A DNA stretch of 9,758 nt from a virus (IMGVR_UViG_2663762948_000006:1-9758); one strand, 5' to 3'. Counted from the first letter of the stretch, positions 1-9,758 are shown. Notes: a model not told the origin generated them from the sequence alone. Translations and numbers: made by a program.

Positions 1-219
1 TTACATCCACATAATTTGCTGCCCTGATGGCAACGGGTGCGGCCTTACGGCGTGGACTTCTCCCGGCTTCACGATGTATCGCTGTACCGACTCATAAGTG
101 ATGAACGTGGCGCTGCAATTCACGTTCTGGCACTGATGATAACGCTCTTTTGTCGTGTCAGTGATATAGCGGCTTGTACGCGCATGTGCGGCATGCTGGC
201 ATAAAGGACAATGAAACAT
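1..219 (-). CDS. ogr: Ogr late-gene transcriptional activator (zinc-finger, P2 Ogr / P4 Delta family), 72 aa
   Basis: Translation from ATG at 217-219 gives MFHCPLCQHAAHARTSRYITDTTKERYHQCQNVNC..., with the CxxC...CxxxxC zinc-finger spacing and the 72-aa length of P2 Ogr. The 93-aa ORF in the track begins at an upstream TTG (280-282) and is probably an over-extension. SD-like GGAAGAGG lies about 8 nt upstream of the ATG on the minus strand. Confidence 0.9.
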   Translation of the reverse strand: MFHCPLCQHAAHARTSRYITDTTKERYHQCQNVNCSATFITYESVQRYIVKPGEVHAVRPHPLPSGQQIMWM

Positions 220-253
220 CGCGAGCACCTCTTCCGGTTTTGTTGATGGTGCC

Positions 254-282
254 ATTTTAGTTAATTTATCCTTACAAAACAA
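254..282 (-). promoter_or_regulatory. Putative sigma70 promoter for ogr (-35 TTGTTT, 17-bp spacer, -10 TAAAAT, read on minus strand)
   Basis: By eye: reverse complement of 277-282 is TTGTTT and of 254-259 is TAAAAT, 17 bp apart, about 35 nt upstream of the ogr ATG. No experimental support. Confidence 0.3.
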
Positions 283-300
283 ACAGATAAAACAAAAACA

Positions 301-1464
301 TCACTCATCATCTTCTGTTTCGTACTCCACATCAGAAAGCCTGACCTCAAGCTCTAAGGACGTCGTGAAGCCGCTATTATTCAGAAAATGTGTCACCTTA
401 GTGATTGTCCAGTCCTGCTCGTCTATGACGCGCTTAAAGCCAGACACTTTGACCGGTGTTTCCGTGTAAATATCTGCCCGACCGGTAGCCAGGCTGATGG
501 AGAACTCCGCAACGCCCCGTTGCAGTTTATCCCACTTCGCCTGAGCGGCGCGCATGGCCTGCGCTTTCGTGGCATATACCGTGGTCAGGGCAAAAACGTT
601 GTCAGCCTCACCGGCCATGTATTCACCTTCACGCGCTTCCGGTACTTTAGGCGCTTTCTTCTGCCTGACCGGTTTCGCTTTCGGGTGCTCCAGTGCGCGC
701 AGGTGTTTCTCTTTCTTTTTGCGTTTCAGTTTTACCTTCTGCTTTTGCGGCTTCGGGTCTTTAGTGTGTAGCCATTTTGCCGTTACACCGGTGTAGGCTC
801 CACGGTCAGCAATCGCAAAATGATGGCGGTCGCCGTCGCTGCGGGTTATGGTGACCTGCGGGATTTTTTTACCGCTGGCCGTCACTCCCTGCCCCGCTTT
901 GAGAAACAACAGTTTTCCCATTTTTACCGACACCTCACCGCCGTTGCGTTCTGCAAGACGGGTCAGGAATTTCGCATCAGACTCCTGCGACTGGTCGATG
1001 TGTGGAATTTTTATTCCGGCCAGTGACGGAGCGACACTGGCTTCCAGCCTGTTACGGGTGGCTATCGCCTTAACAATCGCACCGAGCGTGGTGTCATGCC
1101 AGGAGCCTTCCCGGCGGGAATTGAGCGTCCCGCGAAAATCTGCACTCCGGGCGCGGATGGTGACTACATCCGGTGCGCCCCGGTGTTCAACCTCATCAAC
1201 GGTAAATTTCCCTTTGCATACCAGGGCAAAACCTTTCCAGCCGATATACACCGTCAGGACAGCGCCACGAACCGGCAGCCCGACCTGCCCGTCGGCATCG
1301 TTCAGTTCAATATCAAGCTGGTCAGCCTCAAAGCCCCGGTTATCCGTCAGGGTCATGCTCATCAGACGGTCGCTGATATTGCCGGTAATATCCCTGCTGT
1401 CGAGCATCAGCATGTAATCCGGCGTCAGCGTACTGCCTGCATCAAATGTCAGCGCATCCAGCAT
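301..1464 (-). CDS. D: P2-type tail protein gpD (late control gene D), 387 aa
   Basis: 387-aa ORF, the length of P2 gpD, lying directly upstream of ogr as in P2 (T-U-D-ogr). The start ATG (1462-1464) overlaps the stop of the upstream gene as TAATG on the minus strand. Contains a Lys-rich basic segment. Confidence 0.88.
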   Translation of the reverse strand: MLDALTFDAGSTLTPDYMLMLDSRDITGNISDRLMSMTLTDNRGFEADQLDIELNDADGQVGLPVRGAVLTVYIGWKGFALVCKGKFTVDEVEHRGAPDVVTIRARSADFRGTLNSRREGSWHDTTLGAIVKAIATRNRLEASVAPSLAGIKIPHIDQSQESDAKFLTRLAERNGGEVSVKMGKLLFLKAGQGVTASGKKIPQVTITRSDGDRHHFAIADRGAYTGVTAKWLHTKDPKPQKQKVKLKRKKKEKHLRALEHPKAKPVRQKKAPKVPEAREGEYMAGEADNVFALTTVYATKAQAMRAAQAKWDKLQRGVAEFSISLATGRADIYTETPVKVSGFKRVIDEQDWTITKVTHFLNNSGFTTSLELEVRLSDVEYETEDDE

Positions 1465-1943
1465 TATCCCGCCCCCGTCATACCTGTGAATCTGGTCGCC
1501 ATACTGCCGGCCTTACCGATGAGCGATTCCGCCTGTTTACCGATATCGCCATAAAGCGCGGCCAGTGATTCATCAACGCGGGTGAGTGACAGCGTAAAAT
1601 CAATTTTCCGGGGTGTGCCGTCTGCAAAGAAAATACTCCCTGTTTCACTCACCCTGCTGATGACATACATGCCGTAAATCATGCCGGTGCCATCCAGCAA
1701 CGGCCACGCCCGCCCCTCCTCTGCCATCAGCCTGAGCGTGGTCATCGTCAGCTTGCCGCCGGTCAGTTCGGGATAAAGCACACCGGCCAGCGTGATGTTT
1801 TCCTCACCCACACCGAGAAACTGAAAGGCATCCCGTTTACCGATACGGGAATTTGACGGCCAGCGATAATCTGATTCACGCTGCATGGTCTGGTGTGGCA
1901 GCGTCTGGCGCATAAAAACAAACATACCTAACGCGAGCATCAT
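1464..1943 (-). CDS. U: P2-type tail protein gpU, 159 aa
   Basis: 159-aa ORF, the length of P2 gpU, between the T remnant and D on the same strand; its stop overlaps the D start. Confidence 0.85.
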   Translation of the reverse strand: MMLALGMFVFMRQTLPHQTMQRESDYRWPSNSRIGKRDAFQFLGVGEENITLAGVLYPELTGGKLTMTTLRLMAEEGRAWPLLDGTGMIYGMYVISRVSETGSIFFADGTPRKIDFTLSLTRVDESLAALYGDIGKQAESLIGKAGSMATRFTGMTGAG

Positions 1944-1957
1944 TTTTCGTCACCTCC

Positions 1958-2743
1958 TTAACCGTCATGCATCATGCTGGCACGGGCGCGCACACGTTTA
2001 TCCCGCTCGTATTTTTCGAGCGCATCCTGTAACTGGCGGTCAAGCTGTGTCCCCGGCGCAGTCCCCCCCGTCAGGCTGATGTGATATTCGTTTTTACTCT
2101 GGTCTACATAAGAGCGGCCAGCCGGTGCCGTGACCGGCTGATAAGCCTGATAGCCTGCATAAGAGCTGGTCGCCGGAATATAGTCACCGGTACCATACGT
2201 GGCGGTATGAGTTCTGGCGGCGGTCTGGTCAAGTGTGTCTGACTCTTTGTTGATAACACCGAGTTTTTCCAGTACCCAGTCAATACCACTGCGCAGTTTG
2301 TTGAACGCATTAAGCGGCAGCATCAACGCGTCAGCCAGTGCCTGCCCGAACATGACGCCCGTGTCACGGCAACGGTTCAGGGTGTCCTGGGTGGCTTTGA
2401 CCGGGGCAATCAGGTTTTTAAACCACTGCCACGCGGCCTGTAACTTTTCGCCCAGCCAGTCAAAAACCGGTTTAAGTGGCGTGAACAGTTCCCCCACCGG
2501 CGCAAATGCCGCTTTCAGCCCTTCAACCACACCACCAAAGAATGCGCTGACAGGCTCCCAGTATTTACGGATAAGCAACGCACCGGCGACAATGGCAGCC
2601 ACCACGGCCACAACCGGCCAGCTAATCGCCCCGATGGCCGTCATAACGGCACTGCCAACCGTCGTGAAGATTGCCCCCATTGCGCCTGCTGCCGCGATGA
2701 TGGCATTGATGCCGGTGATACCCATTCTGGTCGGGTGAACTGT
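1958..2743 (-). pseudogene. T: Tape-measure protein gpT, 3'-terminal remnant (about 255-261 codons of roughly 815); 5' part deleted
   Basis: The ORF ends 14 nt upstream of U as in P2 (T then U). The translation has a long Ala/Gly/Ile-rich hydrophobic segment and a C-terminal region typical of tape-measure proteins. The frame is closed by an in-frame stop at 2744-2746, so only the C-terminal third is present. First ATG is at 2723-2725. Confidence 0.8.
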
Positions 2744-3615
2744 TCAACCGGGGACGCGCCAGCGCCGCCGAACGCGTGGAAATCGACGTCAGTCATAACG
2801 CCCTTGCCGGAGGTCTTCTCTGTGCGGACGGCCAGTGGCGGCAGATTGTCACCATTGAGGACGCACTGAAAGGCGGCTGCACGCTGTTCGACATTGAGCA
2901 GCTCAAACGCGAAAACAGCGCCGACGATTTTAAAAACCTGTTCATGTGTGAATTTGTTGACGACAAGGCGTCGGTATTCCCGTTCGAGGAGCTGCAACGC
3001 TGCATGGTCGACACGCTGGAAGAATGGGAAGACTATGCGCCGTTTGCCGCCAATCCGTTCGGCTCCCGCCCGGTATGGATTGGTTACGACCCGTCACACC
3101 GTGGCGACAGCGCCGGATGCGTGGTGCTGGCACCGCCGGTGGTGGCCGGTGGCAAATTCAGAATACTTGAGCGTCACCAGTGGAAAGGCATGGACTTTGC
3201 CACCCAGGCGGAATCCATCCGCAAACTCACCAAAAAATATAACGTCGAATACATCGGTATTGATGCCACCGGCCTCGGTGTCGGCGTGTTCCAGCTCGTG
3301 CGCTCGTTCTATCCCGCCGCGCGCGACATCCGCTACACACCGGAAATGAAAACCGCAATGGTGCTCAAGGCAAAAGACGTTATCCGCCGTGGCTGTCTGG
3401 AATATGACGTCAGCGCCACCGACATCACCAGCTCGTTTATGGCTATCCGCAAGACCATGACCAGCAGCGGACGCAGCGCCACCTATGAGGCCAGCCGCAG
3501 CGAGGAAGCCAGCCACGCCGACCTCGCCTGGGCGACCATGCACGCTCTGTTAAATGAGCCACTCACCGCCGGTATCAGCACCCCGCTGACATCCACCATT
3601 CTGGAGTTTTACTGA
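2719..3615 (+). pseudogene. P: Terminase large subunit gpP, 3'-terminal remnant (nuclease-domain half); 5' half deleted
   Basis: The frame is open only from 2719 (in-frame stop at 2716-2718) and its first start codon is GTG at 2776. The translation carries terminase nuclease-domain-like motifs (WIGYDPSHRGDSAG, EYIGIDATGLGVG). Its stop overlaps the Q start (TGATG at 3613-3617), matching the P-Q order of P2. P2 gpP is about 590 aa; only about 280-300 codons remain. Confidence 0.8.
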
Positions 3616-4649
3616 TGAGCAAGAAAAAAGGGAAAACACCGCAACCTGCGGCAAAAAAAATGACCGCCAGCGCCCCGAAAATGGAGGCATTCACCTTTGG
3701 CGAACCGGTGCCGGTACTCGACCGCCGTGACATTCTGGATTACGTCGAATGCATCAGTAACGGCAGATGGTATGAGCCACCGGTCAGCTTTACCGGTCTG
3801 GCAAAAAGCCTGCGTGCTGCCGTGCATCACAGCTCCCCGATTTACGTCAAACGTAATATTCTGGCTTCAACGTTTATCCCGCATCCGTGGCTTTCCCAGC
3901 AGGATTTCAGCCGCTTTGTGCTGGATTTTCTGGTGTTCGGTAATGCGTTTCTGGAAAAGCGTTACAGCACCACCGGTAAGGTCATCAGACTGGAAACCTC
4001 ACCGGCAAAATATACCCGCCGTGGCGTGGAGGAGGATGTTTACTGGTGGGTGCCGTCCTTCAACGAGCCGACAGCCTTCGCGCCCGGCTCCGTGTTTCAC
4101 CTGCTGGAGCCGGATATTAATCAGGAGCTGTACGGCCTGCCGGAATATCTCAGCGCCCTTAACTCTGCCTGGCTGAATGAGTCGGCCACGCTGTTCCGCC
4201 GCAAGTATTACGAAAACGGCGCTCATGCCGGATATATCATGTACGTCACCGATGCCGTGCAGGATCGCAACGATATCGAAATGCTTCGCGAAAACATGGT
4301 CAAGTCGAAAGGCCGCAACAACTTTAAAAATCTGTTTCTCTATGCCCCACAGGGGAAAGCCGACGGTATTAAAATTATCCCCCTCAGTGAAGTGGCAACG
4401 AAGGACGATTTTTTTAATATCAAAAAAGCCAGCGCCGCTGACCTGCTGGACGCACACCGCATCCCCTTTCAGTTGATGGGCGGCAAGCCGGAGAACGTCG
4501 GATCGCTGGGTGATATTGAAAAAGTGGCAAAGGTCTTTGTCCGCAATGAGCTTATCCCGCTACAGGACAGAATTCGGGAAATAAACGGCTGGCTCGGCCA
4601 GGAGGTCATCCGCTTTAAAAACTATTCACTGGAGACTGACAACGGCTGA
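3615..4649 (+). CDS. Q: Portal (capsid vertex) protein gpQ, 344 aa
   Basis: 344-aa ORF, the length of P2 gpQ, immediately next to cos as in P2. GGAG lies 8 nt upstream of the ATG. Translationally coupled to the P remnant. Confidence 0.9.
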   Translation: MSKKKGKTPQPAAKKMTASAPKMEAFTFGEPVPVLDRRDILDYVECISNGRWYEPPVSFTGLAKSLRAAVHHSSPIYVKRNILASTFIPHPWLSQQDFSRFVLDFLVFGNAFLEKRYSTTGKVIRLETSPAKYTRRGVEEDVYWWVPSFNEPTAFAPGSVFHLLEPDINQELYGLPEYLSALNSAWLNESATLFRRKYYENGAHAGYIMYVTDAVQDRNDIEMLRENMVKSKGRNNFKNLFLYAPQGKADGIKIIPLSEVATKDDFFNIKKASAADLLDAHRIPFQLMGGKPENVGSLGDIEKVAKVFVRNELIPLQDRIREINGWLGQEVIRFKNYSLETDNG

Positions 4650-4654
4650 ACATC

Positions 4655-4676
4655 GCCGCCTGCGGGCGGCTTTTTT
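4655..4676 (+). terminator. Rho-independent terminator downstream of Q
   Basis: GCCGCC (4655-4660), loop TGCG, GGCGGC (4665-4670), followed by TTTTTT (4671-4676), starting 6 nt after the Q stop codon. Confidence 0.55.
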
Positions 4677-4818
4677 ACACCCCGCCATCACGCCCTCACA
4701 CGCTCATCACCGCACAAAAAATCCCGCAGACACACCAACGCCTCAACGGGCAGACTAAGCGCCGTCACGACGCGCTCAGACGCTGAAAAAATAAAATCAG
4801 CACCACCGCCAGCGCGCA

Positions 4819-4837
4819 GTGCTTTCCCCGCCTCGCC
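4819..4837. other. P2/P4-type cos site (19-nt cohesive-end sequence)
   Basis: Plus strand 4819-4837 is gtgctttccccgcctcgcc, whose reverse complement GGCGAGGCGGGGAAAGCAC is the 19-nt P2 cohesive end as I recall it. The flanking sequence toward Q also matches my recollection of the P2 left end. Confidence 0.72.
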
Positions 4838-5000
4838 CGCCCGCTTCATGGAGCGCTTTTAATGCAGTTGCAATAACACATCAAAACATCGTCAATACAG
4901 GCGATTATAAACAATAAAAAACGATCGCTGCCGCATGCAAAATCATGCACTAAATGCATGTATTGAAGGGAAATTAGGAACGTGCTCGTTTGGGTCTAAA

Positions 5001-5897
5001 CTATGATTTCGACACAACTATTTTCCCCAAATCAAAACTAAATTCGACATCCCCATTTACGATATTTTCATTTGTCACATGCTCATCAAAAAGGTCACTA
5101 ACATCATACCCCGACTGAAACACTGGGCTCATGATAGCCACGTCGGTGAATGGCTCTTTTTCATGTGTTATATAATATTGACCATAAACATTTGCAGATT
5201 CATCTGCATCATTAAGACTAAGGACTGTTTTTGCTTTGACTTCAGGCATCAGAGAAAAATCAATATTATTCAACAAACACAGTAAGATGCCTGCTATTGC
5301 TCTCCTGTTATTATCAAGCGGCATCAAGTCCACCCCTGGAATCTCCTTCCGAAGCAATATTTTCAGCTCATTAAATAAAGAGTCGAACTTAATTGCGTCA
5401 GAACAATTGAGTAACGACAAAGCTTCATTAATCATTCGCCCTTCATTGGAACCAATTTCTGATGTTAACTTACAAACACCATCATTAACAATATACGATT
5501 TTTTGTTATTAAGCTTCTTCCTCGCTGTAATTACCTGCCCCCCCTTTAAGTTTAACTTCTCCTTTAAAAACTCATCACTGAACATTCTTAATTGCAGTCT
5601 GATTAATGTAGGTAAGTATTTCGGGTATTCATTTAACTCTGGTTTAACAGCATGCTTGTCGCGTCCAAATTTTAAACTTAATAACAAATGATTCCTCAGC
5701 ATGATATCCTTTATCTCGCCTTGATCTCTCCGATGATTATGGGCAACAAAACTCCCAATTTCAAAAATACACTTGGGCGCACTCGGCAACTCACGGGCCG
5801 TAACAAAAAGAACATCAATATCACTATCAGTGAAACTCCCATCCTTTAATCTTCTCAACACTCTCTCTATTCTTGAGATTGCTTTACTTTTATTCAT
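5001..5897 (-). CDS. Hypothetical protein, 298 aa; low-GC cargo gene in the P2 tin/old hotspot position; function unknown
   Basis: Long uninterrupted ORF with an ATG start (5895-5897) in a visibly AT-rich block that contrasts with the surrounding P2 backbone. Lys/Asn/Ile-rich composition. I see no Walker A, HNH, HExxH or other recognisable catalytic motif. It lies between cos and the replication gene, where P2 carries tin and old. Confidence 0.7.
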   Translation of the reverse strand: MNKSKAISRIERVLRRLKDGSFTDSDIDVLFVTARELPSAPKCIFEIGSFVAHNHRRDQGEIKDIMLRNHLLLSLKFGRDKHAVKPELNEYPKYLPTLIRLQLRMFSDEFLKEKLNLKGGQVITARKKLNNKKSYIVNDGVCKLTSEIGSNEGRMINEALSLLNCSDAIKFDSLFNELKILLRKEIPGVDLMPLDNNRRAIAGILLCLLNNIDFSLMPEVKAKTVLSLNDADESANVYGQYYITHEKEPFTDVAIMSPVFQSGYDVSDLFDEHVTNENIVNGDVEFSFDLGKIVVSKS

Positions 5898-6177
5898 GAC
5901 ATTCTTTCAACCTTAATCAATATTTAATTTAAACAAACCATTCTCATACGCCAACCATACCTGTGACACCTGACAAACCAAATAAAAACAAAGGTACAGC
6001 GGATATTGGTATGTACAGCTATATTACACATAAACTCATGTTAGTAACATAAGATCTTCTTGTGAATATTTGTAATTTATTAGTTCACCAACATTAATCT
6101 TTCCAACCGTTATAAATCCAATCATATGCTGATACTCAAATGACGGCCAACTACCACCTCGCGCTGTTCGTTGTTCC

Positions 6178-6220
6178 CTCCAGCAGCACTGGAAGCATGT
6201 TTCAGTACTGCTGGGGTTTT
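6178..6220. terminator. Stem-loop (about 12-14 bp stem, one mismatch) followed by a T-run on the plus strand; possible bidirectional terminator
   Basis: CCAGCAGCACTG (6180-6191) pairs with CAGTACTGCTGG (6203-6214) around an 11-nt loop, then GGTTTT (6215-6220). It sits immediately after the stop of orf67 (6224) on the minus strand, but the U-tract is on the plus-strand side. Confidence 0.3.
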
Positions 6221-6223
6221 CTA

Positions 6224-6427
6224 TCAACAACGTGGTAGCAGTGCAATTTTAGACTGTTCTATATCGTTAAACCGCACGTAATTATCCCGGACTATTTCGG
6301 CACACCCGACCAACTCGTCGGGCGTCAGATTTTCGTTGACCATAATCTGCTGTAGACGGTGAACAATAGCCATCAGCTTGATATTTTTAGTGTTATGTTG
6401 CGGTATCTCGCCTGGTATTCTGTGCAT
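6224..6427 (-). CDS. Hypothetical small protein, 67 aa (from ATG at 6425-6427)
   Basis: The ATG overlaps the TAA stop of the upstream DUF3850-like gene (TAATG on minus strand), suggesting translational coupling. No recognisable motif. The track ORF (6224..6439) starts at an upstream GTG. Confidence 0.35.
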   Translation of the reverse strand: MHRIPGEIPQHNTKNIKLMAIVHRLQQIMVNENLTPDELVGCAEIVRDNYVRFNDIEQSKIALLPRC

Positions 6428-6882
6428 TATCCAAGCCACCCGTTTTGCTTTGCACGCTCAATCTGTTCATCTGAATAGTTCCATGCTCCATCCGTGGCAA
6501 CCATTGCCCCGCCAGACATCCCCGTCTCTGGTTCATACATAACAGCAAGGCCGAGCTGATGCATAATTTCATGATTAATTCTGAATACCAGACCACGCTC
6601 ACTAAGTTCTTTCCAGTTCACAATCTCATATGCGCCTGTATTAAGCTGCTCAATACTTAGCAAGACATAATCTTCCAGCCAGTCTGACAGGTCAGTAACA
6701 TCTGTTATCCGGGCTTCAACCTTTCGCCCCGTATACACACCCTGCACCCATTCATGCAAAATCAACGTGTCCCCGCGCTCATAATTACGGTCATTTTTCC
6801 GAAACTCTGCGCGTTTCTTTCCTTCCAGCACAAGGTCGAAATATTTTGCGTGCAGCTTTACCTCGTGAATTTTTGCCATCAT
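6427..6882 (-). CDS. DUF3850/ASCH-like (PUA-fold) domain protein with a C-terminal HExxH motif, about 151 aa
   Basis: The N-terminal region (KIHEVKLHAKYFDLVLEGKKRAEFRKNDRNYERGDTLILHEW...YTGR) resembles the DUF3850/ASCH-like family as I recall it. The C-terminal part contains HEIMH (6559-6573), an HExxH zinc-binding-like motif. The likely start is the ATGATG at 6877-6882, which overlaps the TGA stop of A (6879-6881); the track ORF extends 11 codons further upstream into A. Confidence 0.65.
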   Translation of the reverse strand: MMAKIHEVKLHAKYFDLVLEGKKRAEFRKNDRNYERGDTLILHEWVQGVYTGRKVEARITDVTDLSDWLEDYVLLSIEQLNTGAYEIVNWKELSERGLVFRINHEIMHQLGLAVMYEPETGMSGGAMVATDGAWNYSDEQIERAKQNGWLG

Positions 6883-8729
6883 GTCCACTCCATTACTGTT
6901 GAGAATCCCGGCCACTCATCAGCGACCGGATACGTGAATTTTTTCCCGTCATAATTTACAGTCGCGCCACGCGCCAGCGCCTCAAGCTCCCATCGCTGCG
7001 GCCTGATACCGTTCTGAGCAAGGTCAACGCGGATACGGGTGATTTGCATTCGTTCCGACCGGGTCAGTCTGGCAGATGGTGCAATTTCATGCGGTTTTAA
7101 CGGGCTTCCGTTTCTTTGCTGACGGTTTGGCGTTCTCATGTCGTATTTTAATGCGCCCCTGAGCGCCCTCACGACCTCCGGTTCATTCCATTCAATAACA
7201 CCGTCATCAACCAGATTAAGCACTGCTGCGGCGTGCTCAGAAGGTGTGGGAGCCGGTAACGAAGTATCACCACCGGTGAGCTTTCCACAGTTATTGACAG
7301 GACTCCGAGGCGCGGCGATGCCGCTTTTTAAAGTCAAAGGCTCAACGACCGGAACTTTCGGCACAATGCGCCAGTCCGTCGTTCTGGTGATATGAATATG
7401 ACGCGCGCCGAGATGCGGCGCGTAAATGCCGACCACTCTCTCGACTTCTTCCTCGTACTCGTTAACGTCATCCGACGGGCTACGGGCAACCCTGACAGTC
7501 TGACAATCGCGCGGGACATTTGCCCCACCCTGCGCGCTGATATACAACGCAAAATCACCACTGTCTGCGGCAGCGCGAGCAGCCTCGACGCGTTCGTCAA
7601 ACTCATCAGCAATACTGACGCCGCGAGGCAATTTGCGTAGTTCACGGTAAGCCCCCATTGTCGGCAGTCCAACCGTTTTAAATTGCGGGATGCGCCACGT
7701 TGACGCCCATGCGGTAACAGCCGCGGCAGTATCTTTAAGCGGCTTACCGGTATCGTTATCGAGCTGACCATCCAGTGCATAGCCGTCGATATTTTTTGAA
7801 ATGTATTTCGCGATATATCCCGCAGCACCGCCCCGGTTAAGGTGCTTTGCCTGAAAACGGTTTCGCGCGGCTCCTCTTTCGTCACCATCCTCTTTGAGCG
7901 CATAGCGACGCATGATTTCGATAATCTGGTTACGCTGGCGTGGATTACAAAAAAGCATCATATGCCAGTGCGGCGTTCCGTCGTGGTGTGGCTCGACGAC
8001 ACGCAAACCGTAGACCTGTAAATCATTATCCTTGAATGCCGTGCGCATCAGGCTCCAGATGCGGCAGAGATAACGCTGCGCATCCTTTGGATTAAATGCC
8101 TCATCGTTCCAGCCGTGATTAAGCTGAACGGTTTTACTTTCGCCTTTTCTGACCTGACGAGTCGGGTGATACTTTGACGGCGCGGTCAGCGTGATAAACA
8201 TCCCCACATCACCCTCTGCGGCGGCGTAACGCTCAATACCGGCAATGGTGTTCATCAGCTCCATCCGGCGAATTTCAGGATTAGAAATACTGCCCATCAC
8301 CTTACTGATAAGGTCGATGCGCTCGCCGGTTTCCCTGTTTTCAAGGTCACACGATTTAAGAAATTCCAGATTTGCCTGGCGGCGCGCACGCACATCACGA
8401 ATGGCGTGTTTACTGGCATACATCATGAAAAGCTGCGATGAGATACGGGCGGCAAACTTTTTCAGCTCCTTGTCATTCATTCCCGGCAGGCGCGCATAGT
8501 GGTCACGCTCTGCCAGAAACAGCAACGACGCGTCGGTGTTCATTTCATGGCGCTGATTCACACGCTCAATGCGCGGCCATAAACGACGCTGAAAAGTGGA
8601 TGTGAGAAAATAAAACCCGTGCACCGGGCTTTTATTACGCCGGATGTAGTCATAGCGTGAAGTAAACAGCGAGCGCAAAAAGTAAGGCAGGCGATTTATC
8701 GTGGATAACTCTATATAAAAATTACATTT
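6879..8729 (-). pseudogene. A: Rolling-circle replication initiator gpA, 5'-truncated (about 600-616 C-terminal codons of 761 retained)
   Basis: The translation contains the paired-tyrosine motif GYIAKYISK (Y288 and Y292 of the track ORF). P2 gpA is 761 aa with active-site tyrosines that I recall as Y450 and Y454; the offset of 162 plus 599 equals 761, so the C-terminus aligns exactly. The frame is closed by a stop at 8730-8732, the first start in frame is TTG (8676-8678) with no SD, and no B, cox or C genes lie upstream. Confidence 0.8.
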
Positions 8730-8755
8730 TCACCATTTGCCACCAAGATGGTGAA
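8729..8755. promoter_or_regulatory. Nested inverted repeat immediately upstream of int (possible operator or protein-binding site)
   Basis: TTCACCA (8729-8735) and TGGTGAA (8749-8755) are 7-bp inverted arms 13 bp apart; nested inside is CACCA-AGA-TGGTG (8741-8753). It lies 23 nt upstream of the int ATG within the A'/int junction region. Function is inferred only. Confidence 0.25.
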
Positions 8756-8777
8756 TACAGCGCCGGAGGGCTTTCTT

Positions 8778-9758
8778 ATGGCAATTAAGAAGCTCGATGA
8801 TGGTCGCTATGAAGTGGACATTAGACCTCGCGGTCGCGACGGAAAACGCATCCGCAGGAAATTTGAAAGAAAAGCTGAAGCACTAGCATTTGAGCGATAC
8901 ACAATCGCCAATGCCAGTCAGAAAGAATGGGGAGGCCAGCGAGCAGACCGCCGAACTTTGACAGAATTGCTCGACATCTGGTGGAAATACCACGGGCAAA
9001 ACCACGAGCATGGGACAAAAGAGTTTAATCATCTGCTCAAAACCATCAGCGGCATAGGTGATATACCAGTGAGTCGGATGAACAAAAGGGCTTTGATGGA
9101 TTATCGCTCCATGCGACTACGTGATGGCATCAGTGCTGCAACGATAAACCGCGACATGTACCGATTATCCGGCATGTTCACAAAATTAATTCAATTGGAT
9201 GAATTTTCCGGGCAACACCCAATTCACGGACTGCCGCCACTGACGGAGGCTAACCCTGAAATGACGTTCCTGGAAAAAGCAGAAATCGAAAAACTGCTAA
9301 ATGTTTTGACTGGTGATGACTTACTTGTCGCGCTTTTATGTCTGAGCACTGGAGGAAGGTGGACGGAAGTTGCCACGCTAAAACCAGCACAGATTACAAG
9401 TTGCAGGGTTACCTTCCTGAAAACCAAAAACGGTAAAAAGCGAACAGTGCCGATTTCTGAGGAACTGGAGAAAAAAGTTAAAGAGGAGGCCAGCGCCAAA
9501 TTGTTCAAGGTAGATTATGAGAAGTTTTGCGGGATTTTACGCAGAGTGAAACCTGATATACCTCCCAATCAGGCAACCCACATTCTGCGGCATACATTCG
9601 CAAGCCATTTCATGATGAATGGGGGCAACATAATTGCACTGCAACAGATTCTGGGGCATGCGAGCATTCAGCAGACAATGACCTATGCGCACCTTGCGCC
9701 TGACTACCTGCAGAACGCCGTCGCTCTGAATCCACTAAAAGGCGGAGTGACGTTATAA
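8778..9758 (+). CDS. int: Tyrosine recombinase, P2-type integrase (326 aa from ATG 8778; alternative start ATG 8748 gives 336 aa)
   Basis: N-terminus MAIKKLDDGRYEVDIRP... matches my recollection of P2-family Int. The C-terminal catalytic region carries the tyrosine-recombinase signature (HILRHTFASHFMMNGG...LGHASIQQTMTYAHL). GGAGGG lies 8 nt upstream of ATG 8778; the upstream ATG at 8748 has no SD. Confidence 0.9.
   Translation: MAIKKLDDGRYEVDIRPRGRDGKRIRRKFERKAEALAFERYTIANASQKEWGGQRADRRTLTELLDIWWKYHGQNHEHGTKEFNHLLKTISGIGDIPVSRMNKRALMDYRSMRLRDGISAATINRDMYRLSGMFTKLIQLDEFSGQHPIHGLPPLTEANPEMTFLEKAEIEKLLNVLTGDDLLVALLCLSTGGRWTEVATLKPAQITSCRVTFLKTKNGKKRTVPISEELEKKVKEEASAKLFKVDYEKFCGILRRVKPDIPPNQATHILRHTFASHFMMNGGNIIALQQILGHASIQQTMTYAHLAPDYLQNAVALNPLKGGVTL

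Follow-up and report, generated by a model that had tools for sequence, protein, structure and literature searches.

The gpA-gpQ interval of P2-like prophages is a cargo hotspot, and at this locus P2 itself carries orf91, tin, and old. P2 Tin (NP_046797.1) is a T-even exclusion protein, and Old belongs to the OLD family, which combines an ABC ATPase with a TOPRIM domain. The stand-alone defense genes of this hotspot include the PD-T4 and PD-Lambda single-gene systems, which Vassallo and colleagues reportedly validated by cloning in 2022. Besides tin and old, the hotspot holds validated defense systems such as a DUF4238 protein, and its cargo also includes partition systems, cytolethal distending toxin, and methylases; three of the eight P2-hotspot candidates that were cloned gave a phenotype (Rousset et al. 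2022). DefenseFinder matches ~21% of the 427 cargo protein groups in the hotspot. A 2026 survey of 1,511 P2 elements used DefenseFinder and PADLOC annotation, and only P4 loci were tested in it. The hotspot has hundreds of cargo genes without annotation. ORF298, the gene analyzed here, is among them, and its location alone is weak evidence for an anti-phage role. The first-pass annotation called it undescribed. Its family indeed has no annotation, but Table S5A of Rousset et al. 2022 already contains a near-identical variant, WP_001043197, under the label "hypothetical" and gives the arrangement as "DUF3850/ASCH + hypothetical + hypothetical"; the main text of that paper does not name the gene when it reports which systems were tested. 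Within the library searched, no paper names WP_057696066, WP_001043197, phrog_29586, or pA21BP1.

The window, i.e., the whole stretch of 9,758 nucleotides that was analyzed, is a defective P2-like prophage remnant of ~9.8 kb. Positions 1-9758 are 100% identical to positions 2140-11897 of the Escherichia coli draft contig LIVB01000020.1 (GCA_001419895.1; L032), in which the remnant adjoins cpxA, cpxR, and cpxP (cpxP side of the chromosome). On the minus strand, the window begins with ogr (1-282), gpD (301-1464), gpU (1464-1943), and the C-terminal 255 aa of the tape-measure protein gpT (1958-2725), followed on the plus strand by the C-terminal 279 aa of the terminase gpP (2776-3615) and the portal gene gpQ (3615-4649). 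The cos site, recognized by the 19-nt P2 cohesive end GGCGAGGCGGGGAAAGCAC at 4819-4837 (minus strand; aligned to P2 cosR, L012 7576-7594), lies 163 nt 3' of ORF298 (5001-5897, minus strand; ATG start, 298 aa, stop included), the cargo gene. The conserved flank on its other side, outside the cargo, consists of a 71-aa ORF of phrog_11386, whose function is unassigned in PHROGs (orf71; 6224-6439, minus strand), and the ASCH/DUF3850 plus DUF7415 counterpart of P2 orf91 (6427-6915, minus strand). Beyond them are an N-terminally truncated gpA of 599 aa instead of 761 (6879-8678, minus strand) and a P2-type integrase (8748-9758, plus strand). Everything between the C-terminal parts of gpT and gpP has been lost, as has the region from the gpA N terminus through the repressor gene C; int, cos, ogr, D, U, Q, and the cargo gene are retained. 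The junctions lie near 2725-2776, 8417-8420, and 8702-8708, and the deletion within gpA amounts to ~293 bp with a 4-nt overlap at the junction. The surroundings are thus P2-like as first described, but the defective state of the prophage had been missed. As to the ASCH/DUF3850-DUF7415 gene, when the ORF is read from the GTG at 6915, its first 37 nt coincide with the end of gpA (6879-6915). Its true start is probably downstream of 6915 because the RefSeq starts in intact relatives (150-151 aa) are later, at the gpA stop codon.

The limits of the cargo emerged when the locus was aligned by BLASTN to L014, a hotspot without cargo, and L013, which holds different cargo. Flank homology ends at 4878/4879 and restarts at 6147/6150, and because it breaks off there, the low-GC cassette is placed at ~4879-6149, comprising 1.27 kb with the gene, ~250 bp upstream, and 122 bp downstream. 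The GC content is 0.369 in the gene and 0.361 in the cassette, as compared with 0.53 in the rest of the window. These values, together with the boundaries, bear out the first-pass view of AT-rich hotspot cargo that was acquired separately. ORF298 lies in the gpA-portal interval, beside cos, in DNA that is variable among similar prophages, and by these properties it is P2 gpA-gpQ hotspot cargo. Its assignment to the P2 tin/old locus also stands, but its orientation is unlike that of tin and old: ORF298 is codirectional with gpA, whereas the two P2 genes are antisense to it.

ORF298 is a real gene under purifying selection. The probability of a 298-codon open frame arising by chance at the base composition of the cassette is ~3e-11. 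Comparison with the Klebsiella orthologue, which is 73% identical in nucleotide sequence, gives a dN/dS of 0.11, with values of 0.06 for the first 110 codons and 0.23 for the last 88 codons, which encode the C-terminal domain. Protein-identical copies, labeled "hypothetical protein" in RefSeq (e.g., WP_057696066.1), occur on at least 119 contigs and the near-identical variant on at least 986; the cassette is present in 25 of 5,426 complete E. coli genomes. In the inspected E. coli loci, its position is constant, with the gpA-side genes on one side and the portal gene on the other. An IS903B copy lies between the cargo gene and cos in E. coli 23CRST029 (L035 1402-2370) and EC9952. Disruption of the gene by this element was considered and rejected at the inspected 23CRST029 locus, where the insertion is downstream and the 298-aa ORF is intact. 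Broken copies do exist elsewhere, namely a split gene in a gammaproteobacterial MAG (L022 404-1125) and a truncated form, P0192 (121 aa, 8 contigs), and inactivation of the family gene is therefore tolerated. Separately, ~10 complete E. coli chromosome records start exactly at the prophage gpA start codon (e.g., NZ_CP190333.1, NZ_CP116976.1, and NZ_OY754407.1). They match at positions 2715-4515, and gpA occupies 1-2286 in SCU-316 and 23CRST029. The pattern looks like a rotation artefact of the assembler, with a phage "replication" gene mistaken for the gene that starts the chromosome.

The first-pass annotation regarded the protein as an orphan, a view refuted by the size of its family. ORF298 matches phrog_29586 (PHROGs v4) over its full length (residues 1-298 to profile 1-298, E 4.8e-210), and this is the only PHROG matched by the 50 members of alignment A2, all of which match it. 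The PHROG carries no annotation, so that membership gives no functional information. The word-indexed search returned 34 clusters from Enterobacterales (E. coli, Citrobacter, Klebsiella, Salmonella, Cronobacter, Serratia, and Dickeya), its profile version contributed few extra members, and a GTDB scan with close-family patterns (A1) gave no match. A profile search over 1.84 billion representatives, i.e., clusters at 50% identity, found 434 proteins at E <= 1e-3, 128 of them at E <= 1e-10. Most are about 290-340 aa long, and those with an identified source are from Proteobacteria. Distant members are also connected to ORF298 by direct BLASTP (E 1e-9 to 1e-14). The family signature is [FL]xE[IV]xxF[VI]AHxxxR[DN]xG plus an invariant Arg35. 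Over 50 diverse members, Arg35, Ala52, His53, and Gly60 are invariant, and Glu46, Arg57, and Pro92 are nearly so; of 197 collected sequences, 164 contain the core AH-x3-[RK][DNE]xG, invariably near residue 50. Conservation peaks at residues 21-60 and is lowest in the C-terminal β-rich domain. The pI values of the N-terminal, middle, and C-terminal parts are 9.8, 9.2, and 4.1, respectively, and neither a transmembrane segment nor a signal peptide was predicted.

The AlphaFold2 model of ORF298, based on 25 homologues, has a pLDDT of 91.2 and a pTM of 0.85. The model of P0073, a homologue of 16-20% identity, has a pLDDT of 92.5 and repeats the same order of helices and strands, and because of this repetition the predicted fold is taken as a property of the family. 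Neither model has a structural neighbor in the PDB or BFVD, and "no known fold" refers to those two sets. A PDB sequence search with the single protein and the family profile gave nothing under E 0.2. ORF298 has no match in Pfam, NCBIfam, or PADLOC, with no family at E <= 1 among the 5027 models of PADLOC-DB v2.0.0. No family recurs when distant members or the 50 members are searched against the same three collections; PADLOC gave five unrelated single matches for the 50, all at E >= 0.009. The first-pass statement that no NTPase, nuclease, HEPN, TIR, or Sir2 signature is visible agrees with these searches and with the lack of a Walker A or Rx4-6H motif in ORF298. The ORF298 model contains a helix-helix-helix-hairpin unit (H95-103, H108-115, H119-129, E135-138, and E141-144), which has the same order in P0073 and looks like a winged helix. 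This tentative assignment is based on the order of secondary structures and on sub-threshold matches: MarR-type chains with a Foldseek probability of ~0.1, the Rex N-terminal domain at E 0.28, and scattered helix-turn-helix Pfam matches of single members.

The genomic contexts of the family fall into a close clade and a scattered remainder. In the examined loci of the close clade (Enterobacterales), the gene invariably points the same way as gpA, and no other gene separates it from cos and the portal gene. The carriers are P2-like prophages in E. coli and 186-like prophages in Klebsiella, Dickeya, and Salmonella. The upstream neighbors vary (ASCH plus orf71, DinI, DinI plus a 243-aa membrane-anchored protein, or gpA itself), and no partner gene is therefore required; an all-against-all ORF comparison over 13 loci found no conserved neighbor. 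The GC content of the gene was below that of its flanks in 11 of 11 other loci tested. The 243-aa protein, which has an N-terminal membrane anchor, is encoded upstream of the boundary element described below in Salmonella (L039 4142-4873) and Klebsiella (L003 5345-5896). The two copies are 79% identical, the Klebsiella call (183 aa) looks 5'-truncated, and no Pfam match is on record. A two-gene system with this 183/243-aa protein was rejected: its gene is on the far side of the boundary element, and the loci of E. coli and Dickeya, L037, and L038 all lack it, which marks it as separate cargo and not a partner.

Outside the close clade, a second phage hotspot was found in a Pseudomonas-type, P2-like myovirus tail cluster, where the gene is inserted on the opposite strand, with baseplate W/J-like genes on one side and V-spike/gpD/U/T-like genes on the other. 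It was seen in seven independent contigs, i.e., Pseudomonas sp. ANT_H12B (L018 7944-8960), whose gene labels were confirmed by Pfam, and six IMG/VR contigs (L040-L045), whose labels follow from gpD/U/T homology and ORF sizes. On the 5.3-kb Psychrobacter plasmid pA21BP1 (L050 2081-2992), no gene apart from the MobA/MobL relaxase is larger than the member, and on an 11-kb plasmid of Acinetobacter pittii (L051 3908-4792), the member adjoins the BrnT/BrnA toxin-antitoxin pair and a DUF4747 gene. Other neighbors are Fic, HNH_2 with a trypsin-like protease (Trypsin_2), Schlafen/AlbA_2, and an IS30-like transposase. In one locus (L007), a DUF4238 gene is 2.6 kb from a distant member. The family is thus stand-alone and mobile, carried by phages, plasmids, and genomic islands.

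The regulatory surroundings of the cassette bear on whether ORF298 serves the lysogen or the phage. The AT-rich region upstream of the gene (5898-6149, minus strand) is cassette-specific, has a purine-rich stretch 5' of the ATG, and presumably contains the promoter of the gene. Promoter-consensus-like sites are found at 6150-6121 and 6066-6038 on the minus strand; the scan gave five sites against 5.2 expected, which is no excess over chance and not evidence on its own. Downstream, 41 nt past the stop codon, a hairpin with a T-rich tail (4944-4960, minus strand) resembles a terminator as a consensus match only. The upstream edge of the hotspot is formed by a conserved structured noncoding element (6140-6215, minus strand; minimum free energy -32.2 kcal/mol, z = -3.8). 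It directly follows the orf71 stop codon, and the cargo starts just past it. The empty hotspot, the one with other cargo, and the Klebsiella and Salmonella loci all have this element, the changes in its stem look compensatory, and its core pattern was found in 18 of 39 fetched loci; the exact pattern is missing from P2 itself and from the Dickeya locus. An Rfam scan of the window found no RNA. The element may be an early-operon terminator or a recombination boundary.

With such surroundings, ORF298 could be a phage-side early or replication accessory gene, i.e., a counter-defense, replication, or host-takeover helper expressed by lytic read-through from the gpA operon. Read-through expression in the lytic cycle is possible because the gene is codirectional with the early operon and, in Dickeya, Klebsiella, and Salmonella, is separated by only ~60-120 nt from what lies upstream; in Dickeya, it comes only 122 nt after gpA. 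The constant position before cos in every Enterobacterales locus examined and the unconvincing promoter scan fit this explanation, and tin and old, by contrast, are antisense with their own mapped transcript starts in P2. However, the family also has members inserted on the opposite strand of late tail operons, members carried by small plasmids, and chromosomal singletons with no phage replication gene anywhere near, and the strong conserved hairpin stands between the early genes and the cargo. A tblastn search of 50,697 phage records (P2 included, 1e-5) gave no match for ORF298 or the distant member P0073, and known anti-defense genes are rare in P2 (28 of the 1,511 elements of the 2026 survey). 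We consider a phage-side function improbable but a serious rival.

Some members are carried by plasmids of very small size, and in Acinetobacter the gene has BrnTA and other toxin-antitoxin-like genes as neighbors. This raises a different explanation, in which ORF298 is a selfish maintenance or addiction function (toxin-like, a post-segregational module, or a regulator) that stabilizes its carrier without phage defense. The basic N-terminal region with its winged-helix-like unit, as modeled, could suit such a function, and the gene persists in prophage remnants. It is intact in several decayed prophages, i.e., the window, L030 (the same site, more eroded), L037, and L038 (truncated portal gene). 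Retention in the E. coli remnants says little on selection because these remnants are recent, with flanks 96-99% identical to intact prophages; real weight is given only by L037. In this extreme remnant (GCA_964063365.1, L037 3916-6855), all that is left between chromosomal genes on the panC/panD side and the hpt side is a gpA fragment of 276 aa, an intact member of 295 aa, and a portal fragment of 131 aa. The strongest argument that the host has kept the cargo gene comes from this locus. Against addiction, neither a conserved antitoxin-like partner nor a small neighboring ORF was found, the Rfam scan of the window was null, and the split (L022) and truncated (P0192) copies indicate that loss is tolerated. 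An addiction function is therefore quite improbable.

A broader alternative is that ORF298 is some other host-directed or neutral cargo, for example a virulence or metabolic regulator, or that it has no selectable function in E. coli. The partition systems, toxin, and methylases of the hotspot set a precedent for such cargo, and some distant members lie among housekeeping genes (L016, L017, and L019). The strong purifying selection and the sharply conserved motif across Proteobacteria speak against it, as do the consistent association with mobile elements and conflict-type neighbors and the lack of a signal peptide or membrane segment that would hint at export. This alternative appears rather unlikely, though less so than the two preceding ones.

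Here, we propose that the cassette is a self-contained lysogenic-conversion unit whose product is most likely a stand-alone phage-exclusion protein and thus an anti-phage candidate; we give this explanation a little less than an even chance. It is favored because a single low-GC gene, mobile carriers, a conserved core joined to a fast-evolving domain, and a hotspot with validated defense systems come together; the persistence of an intact gene in decayed prophages, chiefly L037, adds to this. It is weakened because in Enterobacterales the gene is codirectional with the early operon and has no convincing promoter, and because the base rate is low, as seen in the ~21% of 427 groups matched by DefenseFinder and the three of eight clones with a phenotype. 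We infer the anti-phage role, the division of labor between the domains, and the expression pattern as follows. Transcription would start in the AT-rich upstream region of the cassette itself, and the conserved hairpin element would insulate the cassette from the early operon of the prophage. The product would be a soluble cytoplasmic protein. Its basic helical N-terminal two-thirds would carry the Arg35 / Glu46 / Ala-His53-x3-Arg57-[D/N]-x-Gly60 site and include the winged-helix-looking unit, and this Arg/Glu/His/Arg site may be a catalytic pocket or one that binds phosphate or nucleic acid, the role of the motif being a guess. The acidic, faster-evolving C-terminal β domain would recognize a component of the infecting phage, and this recognition would switch on the N-terminal activity so that the invader or the infected cell is blocked. 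A bolder extension, which we regard as somewhat unlikely, is that ORF298 is the founder of a new superfamily of single-protein immune effectors with a fold outside the PDB and the signature R...E-x5-AH-x3-R[D/N]xG, spread Proteobacteria-wide by temperate phages, small plasmids, and islands, with the acidic β domain as the phage sensor.

If ORF298 is protective, it adds a defense family without sequence or structural relatives, and it offers a ready mutational target (E46, H53, and R57) together with a natural series of sensor-domain variants. It would also mean that the unannotated majority of P2-hotspot cargo still conceals new immune biochemistry. If it is not protective, it becomes a defined non-defense cargo in a hotspot that is often read as defense-only and calibrates predictions based on guilt by location. 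The occurrence of the family in two phage hotspots, on plasmids down to 5.3 kb, and in prophage remnants gives a comparative handle beyond that of single-locus candidates.

Judged by residues, the known proteins nearest to ORF298 are the HEPN RNases (AbiD/F, RnlA, and Cas13 HEPN), with which it shares a helical N-terminal region where a loop carrying invariant Arg and His leads into a long helix, and one distant member has a marginal Cas13b match (E 0.009). HEPN membership was rejected on the motif, on the fold, and on the 49 of 50 members without a Cas13b match. The invariant residues of the family are ordered His53-x3-Arg57, unlike the HEPN Rx4-6H, which is absent from ORF298 and occurs by chance, at non-equivalent positions, in 15 of the 50 members; the model does not show the four-helix fold of solved HEPN structures. 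Old is, like ORF298, cargo of P2-like prophages in the same hotspot. ORF298 is half its size, lacks a Walker A motif, and shows neither an ATPase nor a TOPRIM domain in Pfam, NCBIfam, or PADLOC, so that the OLD family was rejected as well, in agreement with the first-pass annotation. The single-gene systems, i.e., DUF4238 of Rousset et al. 2022 and PD-T4/PD-Lambda, resemble the candidate in being stand-alone, partnerless cargo of this hotspot; they differ in that PADLOC v2 includes them and has no model matching ORF298.

By position, these systems and Tin come closest to ORF298, and Tin has the gpA-cos locus in common with it. Kinship with Tin, which the first-pass annotation had left as a possibility, was rejected: direct BLASTP gave only E = 0.37 over 21 residues, and the tblastn search found no match to P2. 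Tin is also opposite to ORF298 in orientation relative to gpA, and it is co-transcribed with old, whereas ORF298 stands alone. Nevertheless, both are single soluble proteins of similar size (253 versus 298 aa) without a recognizable domain, and both are lysogenic-conversion cargo. ORF298 is thus plausibly a strong candidate among many, whose family and fold are without known relatives and whose kind is a known one, that of hotspot cargo with a probable role in conflict.
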